DNA of 64,000 nucleotides from a virus: IMG/VR virus record IMGVR_UViG_3300043137_000338, one strand, 5' to 3'. The notes beneath the pieces are model-generated. The model saw only the letters and a program-made list of their open reading frames with translations. It was not told the origin of the DNA and made no database searches. How positions within the stretch are numbered: position 1 is the stretch's first letter; each line of letters begins with the position of its first letter. A program made the translations under genes and the position numbers. Positions 4,659-63,756 of the stretch are shown here, piece by piece.

Positions 4659-5709
4659 AGTAGCTATAATAACTGATACACACTGGGGCGCCCGCAATGA
4701 CAGCCTAGTTTTTATTGATTTTTTTGATAAATTTTATACTAATATTTTTATACCATTATTAGATGAGCATGAAATAAATACAGTATTAATGTTAGGTGAT
4801 ACATTCGATAGAAGAAAATATACTAATCATATATCTCTACATCATGCAAAAAGAATCTTTTTTGATCCATTGGAAGAACGTGGAATTAATATCCATATGA
4901 TTGTTGGTAATCATGATACCACATACAAGAATACCAATGAAGTTAACTCTCCTGACTTGTTACTACAAGAGTACGGAAACATTAACGTCATATCTAATCC
5001 GGAAACCATCTACATTGATGGCATTCCTATTTGTATGGTTCCTTGGATATGCTCTGACAACTATCAAACAAGTATTGATGTTATGCGAGACACCAAAGCC
5101 GAATTGTGTATGGGGCATTTTGAAATCGCAGGATTTTCTATGTATAGAGGTATGGAATCACATGGTGGACTTTCTAAAGAAATTTTTGATAAATTCGACC
5201 TGGTTTTCTCTGGGCATTATCATCACCGCAACAATAACGGGCATATTCACTATCTCGGGAATCCTTACGAACTCACGTGGCAGGACTATAATGATCCCCG
5301 AGGATTCCACTTGTTTGACCTCGATACAAGAGAGCTCCAGTTTATACAGAATTATTATACAATGTTCCAAAGAATCGAGTATGACGACAAAGATACCGAG
5401 CCAGTCGATCTAGATGCTCTCGATCTAAAGGGTATGTACATTCGCCTCATTGTCGCGAACAAGACAGACTATTATAAATTTGATAAGTTCGTTCAGAAAC
5501 TGTATAATAAGGGATGTAACGAAATAAAGATCATTGAAGATCTTTCTGAATTCGTAGAAGGTGATGTTGGTGAAGAGATTGATCTAGAAGATACTCTATC
5601 TGTTTTGTCGAACTTCATTGATTCTATTGAAACTGATTCTGATAAAGAAGAAATCAAAACTTTTATGAAATCTCTTTACACGGAAGCTATTAATGCGGAG
5701 GTAGTTTGA
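4636..5709 (+). CDS. 47: recombination endonuclease subunit gp47 (Mre11/SbcD-like)
   Basis: Phosphoesterase motifs DTHWG, GDTFD, GNHD and GHYHH; followed by gene 46 as in T4. Confidence 0.88.
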   Translation: MIGVMLNKVAIITDTHWGARNDSLVFIDFFDKFYTNIFIPLLDEHEINTVLMLGDTFDRRKYTNHISLHHAKRIFFDPLEERGINIHMIVGNHDTTYKNTNEVNSPDLLLQEYGNINVISNPETIYIDGIPICMVPWICSDNYQTSIDVMRDTKAELCMGHFEIAGFSMYRGMESHGGLSKEIFDKFDLVFSGHYHHRNNNGHIHYLGNPYELTWQDYNDPRGFHLFDLDTRELQFIQNYYTMFQRIEYDDKDTEPVDLDALDLKGMYIRLIVANKTDYYKFDKFVQKLYNKGCNEIKIIEDLSEFVEGDVGEEIDLEDTLSVLSNFIDSIETDSDKEEIKTFMKSLYTEAINAEVV

Positions 5710-7424
5710 TCACGTTTAAATGTATAGAGTGGATGAATTTTTTATCCACAGGCAACTCTCCCAACAAAGTTTTACTTGACCGTTCTACCACTACTCTTAT
5801 CATCGGTAAGAATGGTGAGGGAAAGAGCACGATTTTAGATGCTCTCTGTTTTGCCTTGTTCGGTAAACCTTTCCGTAACATCAATAAAGGGCAGCTGGTA
5901 AATTCTATCAATGGTAAAAAGTGTCTCGTTACCATTGACTTTGAGATCAACGGTAAAGAATACCAAGTGATCCGCGGCATCAAACCAAATATCTTTGAAA
6001 TCAAAATTGATGGTGTCGTCTTGAACCAGGAAGCTGCTTCTCGTGACTATCAAAAAGTTCTTGAGCAACAAATTCTTCGTTTGAACTATAAGACGTTCAC
6101 TCAAGTCGTTATCTTGGGTAGCGCATCGTTCGTTCCCTTCATGCAATTATCTTCACATCAACGTCGTGAAGTGATTGAGGATATTTTAGATATCCGTATT
6201 TTTTCTGTCATGAATCAGCTTTTAAAGGAAAAATCAATTGAAACGAAATCTGAAATTGAGAGGACCGCACAAGAGATTGACGTCGCGAAGACTAAAGTTG
6301 ATGGACAGAATATTCTCATTAAAACTATTGCAGCTGCCAAGTCAGAAGTTATTGAATCTTTATTATCTAAAATCAAAGATAATAACGAACAAATACTCTC
6401 CAGCGAAAGTGCGGTGGCTGCAACACTTGCTGAGATTACCACACTCCAATCACAGACTCAGGTCAAGAGTAAAATTGATAGTGAACTTAAAAAAGCGACT
6501 GGGATTAAATCTAAAGTCTCTTCCCAACTCGAGCAGTTCGAAGATCAAACTCAATTCTTCAATGAGAATTCAGTATGCCCGTCCTGCACGCAAGGCATTC
6601 CACACACTCATAAAGAAACCATTATCAGTGAGTTGACTACTAAGGTTGCTGTCGAGAACAAACGATTAGCTGATCTTGAAGAAATCCTGAACAAGTTAAA
6701 CGCTGATTTATTGAATGTCAATGAGTTGTTAAAGCAAATAACAGATAAAAATATTACCGTTTCTACATATAATGCCAACATTTCTATGTTGAATAAGATG
6801 AACAAATCTCTTCAAGATGAACTGAATCTCCACAAAGAAGATACTACAAATATTGACGAAGAGAAGCGTAAGTTAAAAGAACTGGCTGCTGATGCCATGT
6901 CTAAAATAAAGTATAAATCTATATTGGCTGAGAAGCGAGATCTAGAAGAAGTTGCTTCTGTTCTCTTAAAGGATAATGGTATTAAGACTGCTATCATTAG
7001 AGAGTATCTTCCTGTTATGAATAAGTTGATCAACAAGTATTTAAACGCGATGGATACTTATATTCACTTTGAATTAGACGAATCTTTTAACGAAAGTATT
7101 AAGTCCAGATTCCGTGATGATTTTACTTATGCTTCCTTTTCGGAAGGTGAGAAAATGAGAATTGATTTAGCAATTCTATTTACTTGGCGTCAAATTGCTA
7201 AGATGAAGAACTCGGTTAATACTAATCTGTTGTTGCTTGATGAGATTTTTGATTCTTCTTTAGACACGGCAGGCACTGATTACTTTGTTAATCTTATGGA
7301 TCAATTTGGTGATAAAACTAATATCTTTGTTATTAGCCATAAAGGTGACCAGTTATTTGATAAGTTTAGATCAACTATTCGATTCGAAAAGCGCAACGAT
7401 TTTTCTGTGATCGCTTCCCCATGA
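5706..7424 (+). CDS. 46: recombination endonuclease subunit gp46 (Rad50/SbcC-like ATPase)
   Basis: Walker A GKNGEGKST, long coiled-coil, central CPSC zinc hook, ABC signature FSEGEKMRIDLA, D-loop LLLDE. Confidence 0.88.
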   Translation: MITFKCIEWMNFLSTGNSPNKVLLDRSTTTLIIGKNGEGKSTILDALCFALFGKPFRNINKGQLVNSINGKKCLVTIDFEINGKEYQVIRGIKPNIFEIKIDGVVLNQEAASRDYQKVLEQQILRLNYKTFTQVVILGSASFVPFMQLSSHQRREVIEDILDIRIFSVMNQLLKEKSIETKSEIERTAQEIDVAKTKVDGQNILIKTIAAAKSEVIESLLSKIKDNNEQILSSESAVAATLAEITTLQSQTQVKSKIDSELKKATGIKSKVSSQLEQFEDQTQFFNENSVCPSCTQGIPHTHKETIISELTTKVAVENKRLADLEEILNKLNADLLNVNELLKQITDKNITVSTYNANISMLNKMNKSLQDELNLHKEDTTNIDEEKRKLKELAADAMSKIKYKSILAEKRDLEEVASVLLKDNGIKTAIIREYLPVMNKLINKYLNAMDTYIHFELDESFNESIKSRFRDDFTYASFSEGEKMRIDLAILFTWRQIAKMKNSVNTNLLLLDEIFDSSLDTAGTDYFVNLMDQFGDKTNIFVISHKGDQLFDKFRSTIRFEKRNDFSVIASP

Positions 7425-56897: not shown

Positions 56898-57218
56898 GTG
56901 AAGAAAGTCTTTTTGATCGCCGCTGTTGCTGTCGCCTCTGTTGGTATTTTGGCATCGGCACCTGCTTGTGCTCAAAATCATAGGCACCAGCACCATAACG
57001 GAACTCGTGATATTATTATCGGTACCGTTATCGGTGGTGTTGTGACCGGAGTTATTATGAACTCGCAGCGCGGTCAAGTTATCGTACAACCGCAAGTTGT
57101 ATATCAGCCTGAGCCGATGCCTGTTTATCAACCTGCACCAAAACAGTACTGTGAAGTAAAATTCATTCAAGATCAATTTGGTCAGGTTCGCGAATTTACT
57201 GCTTGCTACTATCGCTAA
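56898..57218 (+). CDS. small secreted His-rich protein
   Basis: GTG 56898 after AAAGGA; signal peptide KKVFLIAAVAVASVGILASAPACAQ; HRHQHH. Confidence 0.45.
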   Translation: MKKVFLIAAVAVASVGILASAPACAQNHRHQHHNGTRDIIIGTVIGGVVTGVIMNSQRGQVIVQPQVVYQPEPMPVYQPAPKQYCEVKFIQDQFGQVREFTACYYR

Positions 57219-57219
57219 T

Positions 57220-57657
57220 ATGAAACAGAAATGGATTGATGCATTCATGGATACTGCTGAGCGTTTTGCTCAGCTGAGTTCTGCCACCAGGTTGAAGGTG
57301 GGTGCAGTGGTAGTCCAAGAAAACCGTATAATCTCCATCGGCTATAATGGAATGCCAGCTGGCTGGAGTAATGAGTGTGAAGAAGAAATTGTTGTCGATG
57401 TCGACGACAAGTGGTTGGTAACATTGAAAACAAAAGATGAGGTTATTCATGCAGAAGCTAATGCAATTCTCAAGTTGGCACGCGATGGTGAACGAGGCAC
57501 TGGCGCCAGCATATTCATCACTCATGCTCCTTGCATCAACTGTGCTAAGTTGGTCTACGGCGCTGGAATCAAGAACGTTTACTACCGTAACAGCTACCGT
57601 GACACCGCTGGTGAAGACTTTCTGGTGAAGTGCGAAATAAATGTTGAAAAAACTTGA
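57220..57657 (+). CDS. cd: dCMP deaminase
   Basis: Zinc-binding HAEANAI..HAPCINCAKL; ATG 57220. Confidence 0.85.
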   Translation: MKQKWIDAFMDTAERFAQLSSATRLKVGAVVVQENRIISIGYNGMPAGWSNECEEEIVVDVDDKWLVTLKTKDEVIHAEANAILKLARDGERGTGASIFITHAPCINCAKLVYGAGIKNVYYRNSYRDTAGEDFLVKCEINVEKT

Positions 57658-57682
57658 CTTTAAACGAAAATCGCTGTATAAT
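57654..57682 (+). promoter_or_regulatory. early promoter TTGACTTTAAACGA..N..TATAAT driving a non-coding transcript
   Basis: -35 57654-57659, -10 57677-57682. Confidence 0.6.
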
Positions 57683-57688
57683 AACGCT

Positions 57689-57919
57689 AAATAGATGATA
57701 AGGCATAGTCTTATCAAACCAAGGAATCAATTGCAAATGTCGTGTCTCTTATCCAGAAAACATCTACCTCTATCAAATAGAGTCTGGACAGGCGCACGCC
57801 CACAATCAGGAAATGTATTTGCGATTGAGTATGATGTTGAGGGTTTTGGTAAGAAGACGTAACGGTCTTACTTAATTTTACCAAAACCCTCGGAGATGAA
57901 AGTCTCTCGAGGGTTTTTT
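57689..57919 (+). ncRNA. candidate ~230-nt structured small RNA ending in an intrinsic terminator
   Basis: No ORF; long hairpin 57839-57890 (GAGGGTTTTGGTAAG..CTTACTTAATTTTACCAAAACCCTC) overlapping the terminator hairpin 57887-57913 + TTTTTTGTTTT. Confidence 0.45.
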
Positions 57920-57954
57920 GTTTTACCCCTACAGACTGTAGGGTCTTATGAAGT

Positions 57955-58011
57955 GCTTTACTTTAATTCACTTCTGAAGTAAAATAGGTGCTTAGGTTGA
58001 GTGAAGAGGTT
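57955..58011 (+). repeat. 57-nt promoter repeat unit copy A (GCTTTACTTTAATTCACTTCTGAAGTAAAATAGGTGCTTAGGTTGAGTGAAGAGGTTG)
   Basis: Near-identical units at 58042, 62806 and 62889; each holds a -35/-10 promoter and a conserved leader. Confidence 0.7.
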
Positions 58012-58041
58012 GTTCTGTTCTTCGCTTAGCTTGAAAGAAGT

Positions 58042-58098
58042 GCTTGACTTTAATTCAGGTTTGAAGTAAAATAGGTGCTTACGTTGAATGGCAACGGC
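58042..58098 (+). repeat. 57-nt promoter repeat unit copy B
   Basis: -35 TTGACT 58044-58049, -10 TAAAAT 58067-58072. Confidence 0.7.
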
Positions 58099-58170
58099 TG
58101 TTTGACTAAAGATCTTTAACAATTTGCGTACCAATTTATGAGACTGACTGCTTCGGTAGTCAGTCTATGT

Positions 58171-58243
58171 ACCCTCTTAGCCAAGCTGGTAAGGCATCGG
58201 ATTTTGATTCCGACATGCGGTGGTTCGAATCCATCAGGGGGTG
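58171..58243 (+). tRNA. tRNA-Gln (UUG)
   Basis: Cloverleaf by hand: acceptor ACCCTCT/AGGGGGT, anticodon loop TTTTGAT, T-loop TTCGAAT, CCA encoded. Confidence 0.75.
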
Positions 58244-58337
58244 CCATATTAAAACATATTATCTGAGTACAAGGCTCAGTGCTACGAAGCAAAATGTCTA
58301 GCAAGCCTCAAGAGGAAGCTATAGTGTGTTTTAATAT

Positions 58338-58398
58338 GGGAGTATGGCGCAGCGGACTTTTAATCCGTTGGTCGAGGGTTCGAATCCCTCTGCTCCTA
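58338..58398 (+). ncRNA. 61-nt tRNA-like element lacking a D-arm (anticodon-loop-like CTTTTAA)
   Basis: Acceptor GGGAGTA/TGCTCCT, anticodon-like arm, T-arm GAGGG TTCGAAT CCCTC and ACCA, but only 7 nt where the D-arm should be. Confidence 0.4.
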
Positions 58399-58651: not shown

Positions 58652-59254
58652 ATGTTTATTTGTAAATACTGTAGTAAAGATTGCAACAAAAGGTCACATA
58701 AAAATCATGAATTAAGGTGTCCTAAAAATGCAAACAGGGAATATAAAAATGGAATGTTAGGTAAGAAGGGTAGTAATCAATACACAAAATCAAAATCATT
58801 GTGTATTGAGCCGCCAGTATATGACAGATCTAACTGGAAAAGAGGTGGGGCAGCAGCTTGGTCTACCGAAGAAAGATCAGAAAATGCTAAAAAGCAAGGG
58901 TTCGGTGGTTATAGAGAAAACGCTGGTAACTCGAAGAAGTTTCGAGTTATTGACTCGTTTGGAAAAGAAACTACACTTCAAAGTTCTTATGAATTTAGGT
59001 GTAGTGAGATTTTAAATGAACTTGGTATAAAATGGATTAGACCTAAAGCGTTGAAATATGATAATAGGAATTACTTTGCAGATTTTTATCTTCCAGATTT
59101 AGATATCTGGCTTGACCCAAAGAATAGCTATAAAGCAAAACATGACGAAGAAAAGATAAGAAAGGTCATTGAGCAAAACTCTGTTAGATTGTTTGTTCTT
59201 CTGGAACACCAGCTATCTAAAGAATATATTGGGAGATTAGCTGAGACGGATTAG
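58652..59254 (+). CDS. putative homing endonuclease (Cys-rich N-terminus, PD-(D/E)XK/Vsr-like C-terminus)
   Basis: CKYCSKDC..H..C zinc motif; ..FADFYLPDLDIWLDPK.. nuclease-like core; uses the shared endonuclease-gene cassette. Confidence 0.45.
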   Translation: MFICKYCSKDCNKRSHKNHELRCPKNANREYKNGMLGKKGSNQYTKSKSLCIEPPVYDRSNWKRGGAAAWSTEERSENAKKQGFGGYRENAGNSKKFRVIDSFGKETTLQSSYEFRCSEILNELGIKWIRPKALKYDNRNYFADFYLPDLDIWLDPKNSYKAKHDEEKIRKVIEQNSVRLFVLLEHQLSKEYIGRLAETD

Positions 59255-59800: not shown

Positions 59801-59889
59801 GGAAAGTAATGCAGCGGGGTTGGTCCTGCGACCAGCCTTGAAAACTGGGTTCTCAGAAATGGGATGGGGTTCGACTCCTCTGCTTTCCG
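59801..59889 (+). tRNA. tRNA-Ser (UGA), type II
   Basis: Acceptor GGAAAGT/GCTTTCC, anticodon arm CCAGC CTTGAAA ACTGG, long variable arm, CCA encoded. Confidence 0.7.
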
Positions 59890-59990: not shown

Positions 59991-60098
59991 AGGATACTTA
60001 CAGCAAAACTAACTCAAACGTTAGGTAACTGGTTCGACTCCAGTTTCACGCAATAGCGCGAATAGCTCATTCGGTAGAGCAGACGAAGAAAGTATCCT
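59991..60098 (+). ncRNA. circularly permuted tRNA-like element closed by a 9-bp inverted repeat
   Basis: Order is anticodon-like hairpin, T-arm ACTGG TTCGACT CCAGT, 3' acceptor TTCACGC-A, 3-nt spacer, 5' acceptor GCGCGAA, D-arm TA GCTC ATTCGGTA GAGC; flanked by AGGATACTT (59991-59999) and AAGTATCCT (60090-60098). Confidence 0.4.
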
Positions 60099-60249: not shown

Positions 60250-60876
60250 ATGTACTATACTGTTTATAAAATAACGAATCGAATCAATGGTAAGATCTAT
60301 ATTGGATCACATAAAACCAAAGATTTGAATGACAATTATATGGGTTCTGGAAAGTATCTTAAATACTCTCAAGAGAAGCATGGTATAGAAAATTTTACCA
60401 AAGAAATTCTTTTTGTTTTTGATACTCCAGAACTTATGTACGCAAAAGAAGCTGAGATTGTTAATGATGAATTCCTTGCTGAAGAAAATACATACAATCT
60501 AAAGCTAGGTGGATATGGTGGGTTTGATTATCTAAATGCTTGGAAGGAAAATCCGACACATTCTGCTGACCATTACTTAAAGATGTCTTTGCGATTGAAA
60601 GAAAAATATCCAAATAGTCCTATGTACGGACGTAAACATTCTGAAGATTCTAAAAGTAAAAACAGTCAATCTAATCTTGGTAATCAAAGGTTTCTTGGGC
60701 GTAAACATTCTGACGAAACTAAACAAAAAATGCGCTATAGCGCATTGGAAAAACATAGTAAAGATAAAAATTCGCAGTTCGGAACTATGTGGATAACCGA
60801 TGGTTTGGAAAACAAAAAGATCAATAAACTACACGAAATTCCTGATGGTTGGCGTCGTGGTAGAGTGATAAATTAA
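60250..60876 (+). CDS. GIY-YIG homing endonuclease (SegB-like, in tRNA cluster)
   Basis: YKITNRINGKIYIGSHK GIY-YIG motif, repeated NUMOD3-like GRKHSEDSK / GRKHSDETK. Confidence 0.8.
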   Translation: MYYTVYKITNRINGKIYIGSHKTKDLNDNYMGSGKYLKYSQEKHGIENFTKEILFVFDTPELMYAKEAEIVNDEFLAEENTYNLKLGGYGGFDYLNAWKENPTHSADHYLKMSLRLKEKYPNSPMYGRKHSEDSKSKNSQSNLGNQRFLGRKHSDETKQKMRYSALEKHSKDKNSQFGTMWITDGLENKKINKLHEIPDGWRRGRVIN

Positions 60877-61038: not shown

Positions 61039-61618
61039 ATGCCAGCAGTATTTTTAGTATCTGACACACACTTTCGGGCATAGTGGAGTATGCAGATTCA
61101 CTGAGGCAGACGGAGTGACTAAGATTCGACCGTGGACTGATCCAGAAGAAATGGATGAGGAAATGGTCAAGCGATGGAACGAAACCGTCAAGCCAAACGA
61201 CAAGGTTTATCACTTAGGTGACGTTGTCATTAACCGCAAGTCGTTAAGTATTATGAGCCGGTTAAATGGTGACAAGGTTCTGATCAAGGGTAACCATGAC
61301 ATCTTCAAGTTAGAGGAATATACTCAATACTTCAGAGACATTCGTGGTAGTCATGTGATGAACGGTATGATTTTAACTCATATCCCTCTGCATCCAAGAC
61401 AATTATATCGTTTCGGTACTAACATTCATGGTCACTTACATACCAATCGTGTTATGTTTGACGACAAGGAAATGGGTGAGATTATCGATCCGCGTTACTT
61501 CTGTGTTTGCGTTGAACAAACAGATTTTCGCCCTATCTTATTTGAAGACGTAATTAAGCGTATCAAAGAACAGGGTGGTACCGTGGGTTTCAAGAACGGT
61601 AATGGTCCAGTGATGTAA
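61039..61618 (+). pseudogene. calcineurin-like metallophosphoesterase interrupted by a +1 frameshift at UUU CGG G (61072-61078)
   Basis: Frame 1 gives MPAVFLVSDTHF then R A stop; frame +1 continues GHSGV.. and carries GNHD and GHLH motifs; removing C61075 restores DTHFGH. Confidence 0.6.
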
Positions 61619-62228: not shown

Positions 62229-62317
62229 ACCTCGATAGTTTAACGGTAAAACGGCGGATTTATATCCCGTAAGCAACAGATAATTGGTTCATCCGAGTTC
62301 GATTCTCGGTCGAGGTA
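62229..62317 (+). tRNA. 89-nt tRNA-like gene, anticodon loop TTTATAT (UAU, Ile/AUA) with 22-nt variable region
   Basis: Acceptor ACCTCGA/TCGAGGT, D-arm GTTT AACGGTA AAAC, T-arm CCGAG TTCGATT CTCGG, CCA encoded; extra length unexplained. Confidence 0.45.
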
Positions 62318-62325
62318 CCATATAT

Positions 62326-63674: not shown

Positions 63675-63756
63675 GGAGATGAAGCATCAATGGTGATGCA
63701 GTGGACTGTAAATCCGCCGCCCTCGGGCACGACTGGTTCGATCCCAGTAATCTCCA
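63675..63756 (+). tRNA. second tRNA-Tyr-like (GUA), type II
   Basis: Acceptor GGAGATG/AATCTCC (one mismatch), anticodon arm GTGGA CTGTAAA TCCGC, variable hairpin GCCC TC GGGC, CCA encoded. Confidence 0.55.

Follow-up and report, generated by a model that had tools for sequence, protein, structure and literature searches.

A putative ribosome-mediated attenuator with an all-20-amino-acid leader peptide precedes the tRNA array of an uncultured T4-like phage

A stretch of 64,000 nucleotides (nt) from the IMG/VR virus record IMGVR_UViG_3300043137_000338, called the window here and used for all coordinates unless a locus is named, contains a short unit that lies between an early promoter and an intrinsic terminator and heads an array of transfer RNA (tRNA) genes. 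The unit holds a 41-codon open reading frame (ORF), the last codons of which form one arm of a hairpin that cannot form together with the terminator, and the encoded peptide contains all 20 amino acids. Judged from its sequence and from folding models, the unit is probably a transcription attenuator of the ribosome-mediated (leader-peptide) type that heads the tRNA operon of an uncultured T4-like phage. Ribosome-mediated attenuation as such is already known. The literature searched contained no case of it at a phage tRNA operon with a leader peptide of all 20 amino acids, and to our knowledge tRNA genes under leader-peptide attenuation would be a first. A preliminary description of the window had presented the region as ~230 nt with no ORF, a candidate small RNA (sRNA) or attenuator. 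Its proposal of an antiterminator/terminator architecture is supported, as a large lineage of phages has kept the two hairpins and the bases they share, and the unit always heads the tRNA array. The non-coding reading is not: a frame-conserved, Shine-Dalgarno (SD)-led ORF is present, and the ORF body has no conserved RNA structure. By missing the ORF, the preliminary description also missed the likely effector of the switch, the ribosome.

Relatives of the unit were collected in two ways. IMG/VR was searched with the deaminase of the window, which yielded a first set of 80 related loci (individual loci carry names such as L047) on contigs of up to ~170 kilobases (kb), and the 3′ 110-170 nt of the unit were 70-80% identical in ~58 of the 80. 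An independent scan, anchored on the terminator core only, added a second set of 44 further distinct elements. In all, both hairpins are kept in >100 uncultured T4-like phage contigs. Leader comparisons were made on 46 relatives with 40 distinct peptides, and hairpin energies were compared in 37 distinct relatives. The relatives share descent, so that none of the counts below are counts of independent events. The promoters, leader ORF, hairpins, terminator, boxA-like site and first tRNA gene described below are all on the + strand.

The preliminary description had placed a consensus early promoter at 57654-57682, and this assignment was confirmed: the site is a sigma70 / T4-early-type promoter, TTGACT-17-TATAAT, that matches the consensus at 11/12 positions, with a predicted transcription start at ~57689. 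Its -35 box overlaps the TGA stop of the upstream deoxycytidine monophosphate (dCMP) deaminase gene (57178-57657), and homologous promoters occupy the same location in relatives. The minimum-free-energy fold places a hairpin of 9 base pairs (bp) with an AUA loop in the 5′ untranslated region (UTR; 57696-57716), and the SD-type relatives L051, L056 and L082 have one like it. An SD-like AAGGA (57721-57725) lies 11 nt before the ATG at 57737, and AAGGA is present at the equivalent site, 8-11 nt upstream of the ATG, in 13/46 relatives. Most relatives lacking AAGGA have the -10 box 6-9 nt before the ATG, which suggests a leaderless messenger RNA (mRNA). Two promoters are found in many relatives, the proximal one giving a near-leaderless mRNA and the distal one a 5′ UTR with no well-placed SD sequence.

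The program-made ORF list shows a 55-amino-acid ORF at 57695-57862, the conserved part of which begins at the ATG at 57737 and comprises 41 codons and a TAA stop (57860-57862). The stop codon lies inside the long hairpin, and the last codons are the 5′ arm of that hairpin. All relatives have one open frame that runs from a conserved ATG to a stop inside the long hairpin; this sense frame is open in 40/40 distinct relatives, compared with 2.8-3.4 stops on average in either of the remaining sense frames. Nine values between 86 and 125 nt occur for the ATG-to-arm distance, which equals 2 mod 3 in 41/46 relatives, and insertions and deletions have therefore occurred in multiples of three. The ratio of nonsynonymous to synonymous change (pN/pS) is 0.72 in frame versus 0.97 and 1.19 in the shifted sense frames. 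Selection on the leader peptide sequence is thus weak, with residues L10, P11, W17, R21 and the GFGK end well conserved, a conserved motif HLPL..GW..R..AIE.D, and the C-terminal residues the least constrained at the peptide level. The leader peptide matched no family in Pfam or PHROGs, and a single-sequence search of a big protein database gave no candidates. A profile search returned 52 clusters, all unnamed or annotated as "hypothetical protein". One antisense frame is often open (pN/pS 0.77) and behaves as a shadow frame; it was rejected as a real gene, being non-pangram, without a promoter and opposite in orientation to every neighbouring gene. RNAalifold, applied to a codon-guided alignment, gave no consensus RNA structure in the ORF body (the 5′ two-thirds of the unit). 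A small hairpin around the LPL..GW codons is seen in many relatives, not in all, and a pause hairpin or anti-antiterminator inside the ORF was rejected on the same RNAalifold result.

All 20 amino acids occur within the 41 residues of the window peptide, MSCLLSRKHLPLSNRVWTGARPQSGNVFAIEYDVEGFGKKT. Among the 40 distinct first-set peptides (32-48 amino acids), 27 hold all 20, 12 hold 19 and 1 holds 18; the corresponding numbers are 36, 11 and 1 for 48 protein-database clusters, and 31, 13 and 0 for the 44 elements of the terminator-anchored scan. As background, all 20 are present in 0.44% of 41-amino-acid windows from the phages' own proteins and in 0.7% of random peptides drawn from the pooled composition of the leaders. 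Shuffling residues within alignment columns gave 3.8 ± 1.75 all-20 peptides (maximum 12 in 2000 shuffles), far below the 27 observed, so that conserved columns alone are insufficient to explain the pangram. Several amino acids are kept as singletons while their positions move: exactly one His is found in 40/40 peptides, at 4 positions (e.g. MQKH vs MHKQ), exactly one Tyr in 38/40 (6 position patterns) and exactly one Cys in 36/40 (12 position patterns), and there is one Trp in 39/40 and one Asp in 39/40. The property is confined to the leader sense frame, the other five frames averaging 15.9-17.5 distinct residues. In 27/40 peptides the set of 20 is already complete 5′ of the hairpin arm, and the arm-encoded GGFGK contributes no new amino acid. 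Because the sequences are kin, fewer independent events lie behind these counts than the numbers suggest, and phylogeny is ignored by the column shuffle; even so, median pairwise peptide identity among relatives is only 49%, and there have been many residue relocations, each needing a gain and a loss.

Codon adaptation was scored per locus with leave-one-locus-out weights. The leader fell below the 5th percentile of neighbouring genes in 37/46 relatives, with the window alone at 3.8%. Leaders use codons that are rare in the phage family; they favour NNA/NNG, avoid NNC, and never use TTC or TAC. GCG makes up 0.52 of Ala codons in leaders vs 0.09 in the phages' genes, and the corresponding fractions are 0.83 vs 0.33 for GAG and 0.45 vs 0.14 for ATA. 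This bias is partly or largely a matter of shared ancestry.

The antiterminator hairpin (57839-57891; free energy (dG) -25.8 kcal/mol, z = -5.9) consists of the arms GAGGGTTTTGGTAA (57839-57852, arm A) and TTACCAAAACCCTC (57878-57891, arm B) plus an apical stem. It had been described before as ending at 57890; the hairpin exists, with its end at 57891. Arm A corresponds to codons 35-39 (E G F G K), and the apical stem-loop contains the stop codon. The intrinsic terminator (57887-57924), also present as the preliminary description had it, has a stem at 57887-57913 (11 bp, one bulge, GAAA loop) with a dG of -16.6 kcal/mol, or -21.0 with its A/U extension, and a U-run, TTTTTTGTTTT, of the form U6GU4 at 57914-57924. 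CCCTC is indeed common to the 3′ arm of the antiterminator and the 5′ half of the terminator, at 57887-57891 and not, as first given, one base earlier at 57886-57890. The A-run at 57883-57886 is able to pair with either partner. The RNA of the whole unit folds with z = -5.5.

The long hairpin was found in the 37 distinct relatives with a length of 49-58 nt, a dG of -20 to -27 (mean -22.5) kcal/mol and a mean z of -6.4, and the terminator in the same relatives had a mean dG of -13.2 kcal/mol. The sequence of the apical stem varies among relatives yet always pairs. In the alignment, 90.4% of cells are paired for the outer 14 pairs of the long hairpin and 92.7% for the terminator, compared with 26-69% when the partners are slid. 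Covariation across related phages, which had been named earlier as a check, is clear in the terminator, where it involves 4 pairs (CCCTCG/CGAGGG, CCCTCT/AGAGGG, CCCCG/CGGGG). Compensated changes in the long hairpin comprise GG to AA with CC to UU in L075/L077, clades that have three T and three A in place of four each, and the altered arms of L005/L006. Clades in which the C-terminus is frameshifted by a one-base change (GGLAS[RT], VRVRQVN) keep complementary arms. Two Rfam scans of the unit returned no family at threshold, the best match, to His_leader, scoring 18.4 bits where the gathering score is 49 and aligning over the terminator only.

A divergent version of the unit occurs in L005/L006 (~5600-5920). 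It encodes the peptide MMKHIPTIRTSNPLLCGLENSYLDLGVRVS and has re-written arms, GCTGAT/ATCAGC, with the same CCCTC overlap. Its terminator is followed by a 15-codon SD-led ORF; the first tRNA gene is tRNA-Met, not tRNA-Gln, and there is no boxA.

For switch folding, each RNA was folded over the stretch that begins with its start codon and closes with the terminator stem, either free or with a mask that kept 31 nt around the stop codon single-stranded. The free RNA adopted the antiterminator in 42/46 relatives and the full terminator in 4/46. When the stop-codon footprint was masked, the terminator formed in 46/46. In all relatives, the stop codon precedes the shared A-run by 19-27 nt and the end of the U-run by 54-62 nt. 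From its position relative to the A-run, a ribosome at the stop would cover arm A and not arm B. Since the ORF ends in codons that make up the antiterminator's 5′ arm, the effector is likely to be the ribosome.

The unit stands directly before tRNA genes. The array of the window comprises >20 tRNA genes, starts at 58171 and extends past 63841, and its first gene is tRNA-Gln (58171-58246; ARAGORN and Rfam). In the first set, the unit immediately precedes the array at all of the 58 loci where a tRNA array is in range, and it is missing where there is no array. The tRNA gene that follows the unit first is tRNA-Gln in 49/50 first-set loci with a downstream tRNA, and tRNA-Gln lies within 400 nt in 38/38 of the terminator-anchored elements with enough downstream DNA; no tRNA gene was found upstream of the unit in either set. 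The spacer between the U-run and tRNA-Gln is 33-54 nt long and without a promoter in 13/34 distinct first-set spacers and in 23/38 new elements, and a promoter scan of the spacers of these "direct" relatives found no sigma70-type promoter. The visible promoters for the array of direct relatives are therefore all located ahead of the leader ORF, and the polymerase has to get past the terminator to reach the tRNA genes.

These elements can be combined into the following model. The early promoter would start an mRNA with an ORF of ~40 codons in which each amino acid is called for about once. The last five codons are arm A of a stable hairpin, and arm B of this hairpin doubles as the 5′ half of the terminator, the 3′ half of which is termed C (B:C). 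A ribosome that translates close behind the polymerase and stands on the last codons or at the stop would bury arm A; arm B, which starts at least 15 nt past the stop, would stay free and pair with C, leading to termination at the U-run and, in the window, to an mRNA of ~230 nt. If the ribosome is absent, late, or stalled at a hungry codon upstream of A, A:B would form once B emerges. Being ~9 kcal/mol more stable than B:C, A:B would block the terminator and allow read-through into the boxA and the tRNA array. The net effect predicted is that slow decoding gives more phage tRNA. As one codon per amino acid precedes arm A, the ribosome should be held up whenever any one charged tRNA is scarce, and aminoacyl-tRNA supply would presumably be the physiological signal.

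Several observations weigh against this interpretation. Strong promoters lie between the terminator and the tRNA genes in the window and in a large minority of relatives, and where such downstream promoters are present the attenuator could only add to or modulate transcription of the tRNA genes and could not act as their gate. Leader codons show no enrichment for exact complements of the anticodons that the phage itself encodes (0.16-0.42 vs 0.29-0.46 in phage genes); a match of leader codons to phage tRNAs was accordingly rejected, such codons being if anything depleted. Covariation in the A:B helix is limited, and several relatives have an A.C or C.A mismatch at the third position of a Gly codon. 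The evidence from A:B covariation is thin because the 5′ arm is also coding. Reading GGT/GGA against TTACC/TTCCC as compensatory at this Gly third position was rejected, the pair table giving a mismatch or a bulge. RNAalifold, run on the alignment, favours the terminator. In the divergent L005/L006 unit the antiterminator is weak (-15.2 vs -12.4 kcal/mol) and the global fold keeps the terminator. Finally, the single Asp, and often Glu or Tyr, is encoded only 1-4 codons before arm A, and a ribosome stalled at those codons may cover arm A and favour termination.

Other explanations for the unit were weighed against the same evidence. Were the ORF an ordinary small early gene for a functional micro-protein of ~40 amino acids, the terminator would end its mRNA, the hairpin would be a stabiliser or an RNase III site, the overlap with the terminator would have no regulatory role and read-through into the tRNA genes would be leakage. 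The well-conserved residues L10, P11, W17 and R21 and the GFGK end fit such a gene, as do a pN/pS below 1 and the annotation of the ORF as a hypothetical protein by gene callers, and at 20 bp the nearly perfect hairpin has the length that RNase III requires. T4-type genomes are also rich in small early genes with their own promoter and terminator (PMC4122927). A functional fold, however, predicts neither a one-of-each composition nor singletons that are retained yet move; the C-terminus is frameshifted in several clades while the RNA arms remain complementary, codon adaptation is below the 5th percentile of neighbours in 37 of the 46 relatives, and there is no Pfam or PHROG match. In addition, the promoter before the ORF is the only one visible for the tRNA array in direct relatives (13/34; 23/38), and the hairpin would block the gene's own terminator unless a ribosome removed it. 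We regard this explanation as unlikely.

The same ORF and switch could also respond to another signal, namely nascent-peptide arrest by a specific factor or small molecule, the frequency of initiation (free ribosomes), or promoter choice between a leaderless P2 and an untranslated P1 transcript, so that the general supply of aminoacyl-tRNA is not sensed. Conservation of the HLPL..GW..R..AIE.D motif, the two promoters of many relatives with their near-leaderless and poorly led transcripts, and the lack of a match between leader codons and phage anticodons would agree with this. In known arrest peptides, the residues that matter are those adjacent to the peptidyl-transferase centre; here, in contrast, the C-terminal residues are the least constrained, and an arrest motif leaves the all-20 composition with its moving singletons unexplained, making a different signal improbable as well. 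A ~230-nt non-coding sRNA, or a riboswitch or protein-controlled attenuator that works without translation, would account for the unit having its own promoter and terminator and for the z of -5.5 of the whole RNA. It is very hard to reconcile with the indels in multiples of three, the pangram in one frame only, the conserved SD or leaderless start, the absence of conserved structure from the 5′ two-thirds in RNAalifold and the absence of an Rfam match, and it is given hardly any weight.

If the unit is a ribosome-mediated attenuator, its pangram leader might, more tentatively, act as a universal sensor of decoding capacity, such that depletion of any charged tRNA switches on a near-complete tRNA array as an on-demand replacement. 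Depletion could then come from codon-usage mismatch, starvation, host anticodon nucleases or other tRNA-cleaving defences. Phage tRNA arrays are usually seen as constitutive codon-usage helpers or as spares against tRNA-cleaving host defences; if the proposal is true, phages measure the speed of translation and deliver tRNAs when they are needed. The rule that every amino acid appears once within ~40 codons is simple and searchable and could find general translation sensors elsewhere, and the compact design (~190 nt) could be used to build synthetic reporters for decoding stress.

The unit was compared with known attenuators. It has the start signals, the intrinsic terminator before the array and the mutually exclusive folds of this class; as to ribosome position, the agreement is one of geometry and thermodynamics only. 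In place of the classical run of regulatory codons it has about one codon for each of the 20 amino acids, which is the main departure from the classical family. The leaders trpL, hisL, pheL/pheM, thrL, leuL and ilvL, which belong to amino-acid and aminoacyl-tRNA synthetase operons, resemble the phage unit in having a leader ORF, hairpins that exclude each other and, ahead of the genes they regulate, an intrinsic terminator. In these classical leaders the position of the ribosome selects the fold and starvation leads to read-through; they contain runs of one or a few regulatory codons and four segments (1:2, 2:3, 3:4), and show "superattenuation" when untranslated. In contrast, the phage unit has three segments (A:B, B:C), predicted read-through when untranslated, no codon run, and tRNA genes as its target.

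The closest analogue is the mycobacterial whiB7 leader, since both have a short upstream ORF (uORF) followed by an intrinsic terminator and a competing antiterminator. Efficient translation of the whiB7 uORF leads to the terminator and stalling to the antiterminator, and the Mycobacterium smegmatis uORF encodes 19/20 amino acids and so reports shortage of many (PMC10274678). The two have no sequence relationship, and whiB7 differs in being bacterial and in having as its target a transcription factor for tolerance of stress and antibiotics instead of tRNA genes. Relative to whiB7, the phage unit has the all-20 property near-universally in an ORF of ~40 codons and has its stop codon inside the antiterminator. 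In antibiotic-responsive leaders of the vmlR, bmrCD and msrD type, a uORF senses slowed translation and flips a terminator to an antiterminator (PMC9226507). These leaders differ from the phage unit in that drug-stalled ribosomes act at specific peptide motifs, resistance genes are controlled, and the hosts are Firmicutes and Actinobacteria; they lack both a pangram and a phage setting.

Among the genes of the window are those for a family-B DNA polymerase of the T4 type, 55% identical to cyanomyovirus enzymes, for ribonucleotide reductase, for helicases and for further replication functions, and the source of the window is an uncultured T4-like myovirus known only from metagenomes. Neither a DNA-level search of cultured phages with the unit region nor a tblastn search of cultured phages with the leader peptide gave a match.

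Between the terminator and the array, the window contains a promoter-stem-loop (PeSL)-like cassette (57927-58072) with a small hairpin, CCCTACAGACTGTAGGG (57927-57943), and two tandem early promoters (57957-57985 and 58044-58072), the promoters belonging to two tandem module copies of ~87 nt (hairpin and copies together, 57927-58090). The tandem promoters noted by the preliminary description directly downstream of the unit and ahead of the tRNA array are therefore present. Some relatives have one or two copies of a CCCTAC-N5-GTAGGG hairpin with TTGACT/TTTACT promoters behind the terminator, and most have none there; the same module is found upstream of the leader ORF in many relatives. Compared by description only, it resembles the mobile PeSL cassettes of T4-type phages (PMC2839356, PMC4122927). 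In L047, a promoter-like TTGATA-17-TAGATT (9/12) lies at 4681-4709 of that locus, within the last leader-ORF codons and arm A; a transcript from it would lack arm A and should thus always terminate.

A site similar to the boxA of rrn operons, GATCTTTAACA, is located at 58111-58121 and matches GYTCTTTAANA, the boxA consensus of ribosomal RNA (rRNA) operons (PMC5725501), at 10/11 positions. One 10/11 match per 64 kb is about what chance would give, and it is thus the conserved position that counts: a perfect GYTCTTTAANA lies just 5′ of the first tRNA gene in 28 of the first 80 loci. The boxA loci were L002, L007, L019, L020, L025, L033-L039, L043, L044, L048, L050-L052, L055 and L056, and further L058, L059, L065, L066, L068, L074, L075 and L077-L079. 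Its place at the head of the array suggests Nus-factor antitermination of the phage tRNA operon, and such a site would shield the long untranslated tRNA array from Rho, as a preprint on boxA and antitermination suggests for CRISPR (clustered regularly interspaced short palindromic repeat) arrays (10.1101/405316). The known rrn-type boxA systems (rRNA operons, suhB, CRISPR arrays) have the same box at the head of a long untranslated unit as the phage arrays, which suggests that phages borrow the host rRNA antitermination machinery for their tRNA arrays. The phage boxA differs from these as a candidate site that neighbours the proposed attenuator; being downstream of the terminator, it cannot be what overcomes it. 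A spacer promoter of the type found by hand in L047 was rejected, as it matches at only 7/12 positions and would start inside boxA.

A perfect 11-bp hairpin capped by UUCG (58141-58166) lies between boxA and tRNA-Gln in the window. It is optional, being present only in some relatives (e.g. L027, L080, L070, L010, L081) with differing sequences.

Within the array, Rfam detected tRNA-like genes missed by ARAGORN at 58338-58398, 59801-59888 and 63675-63756. The gene at 58338-58398 reads as tRNA-Lys (anticodon loop CTTTTAA), and that at 59801-59888 matched only the tRNA-Sec model (33.9 bits) and is probably a tRNA with a long variable arm. A weak match to the Y RNA-like YrlA family at 60020-60088 (30.7 bits, gathering score 69, E = 0.0014) probably reflects a tRNA-like module. 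ARAGORN called a 92-nt tRNA-Ile with anticodon TAT at 62229-62320; both length and anticodon are unusual, and it may be a mis-assigned long-arm tRNA or carry an insertion. Homing-endonuclease-like ORFs are located within the array at 60250-60876 (PHROG homing endonuclease) and 58652-59254 (weak resolvase/endonuclease match), and a phosphoesterase-like ORF at 61115-61618.

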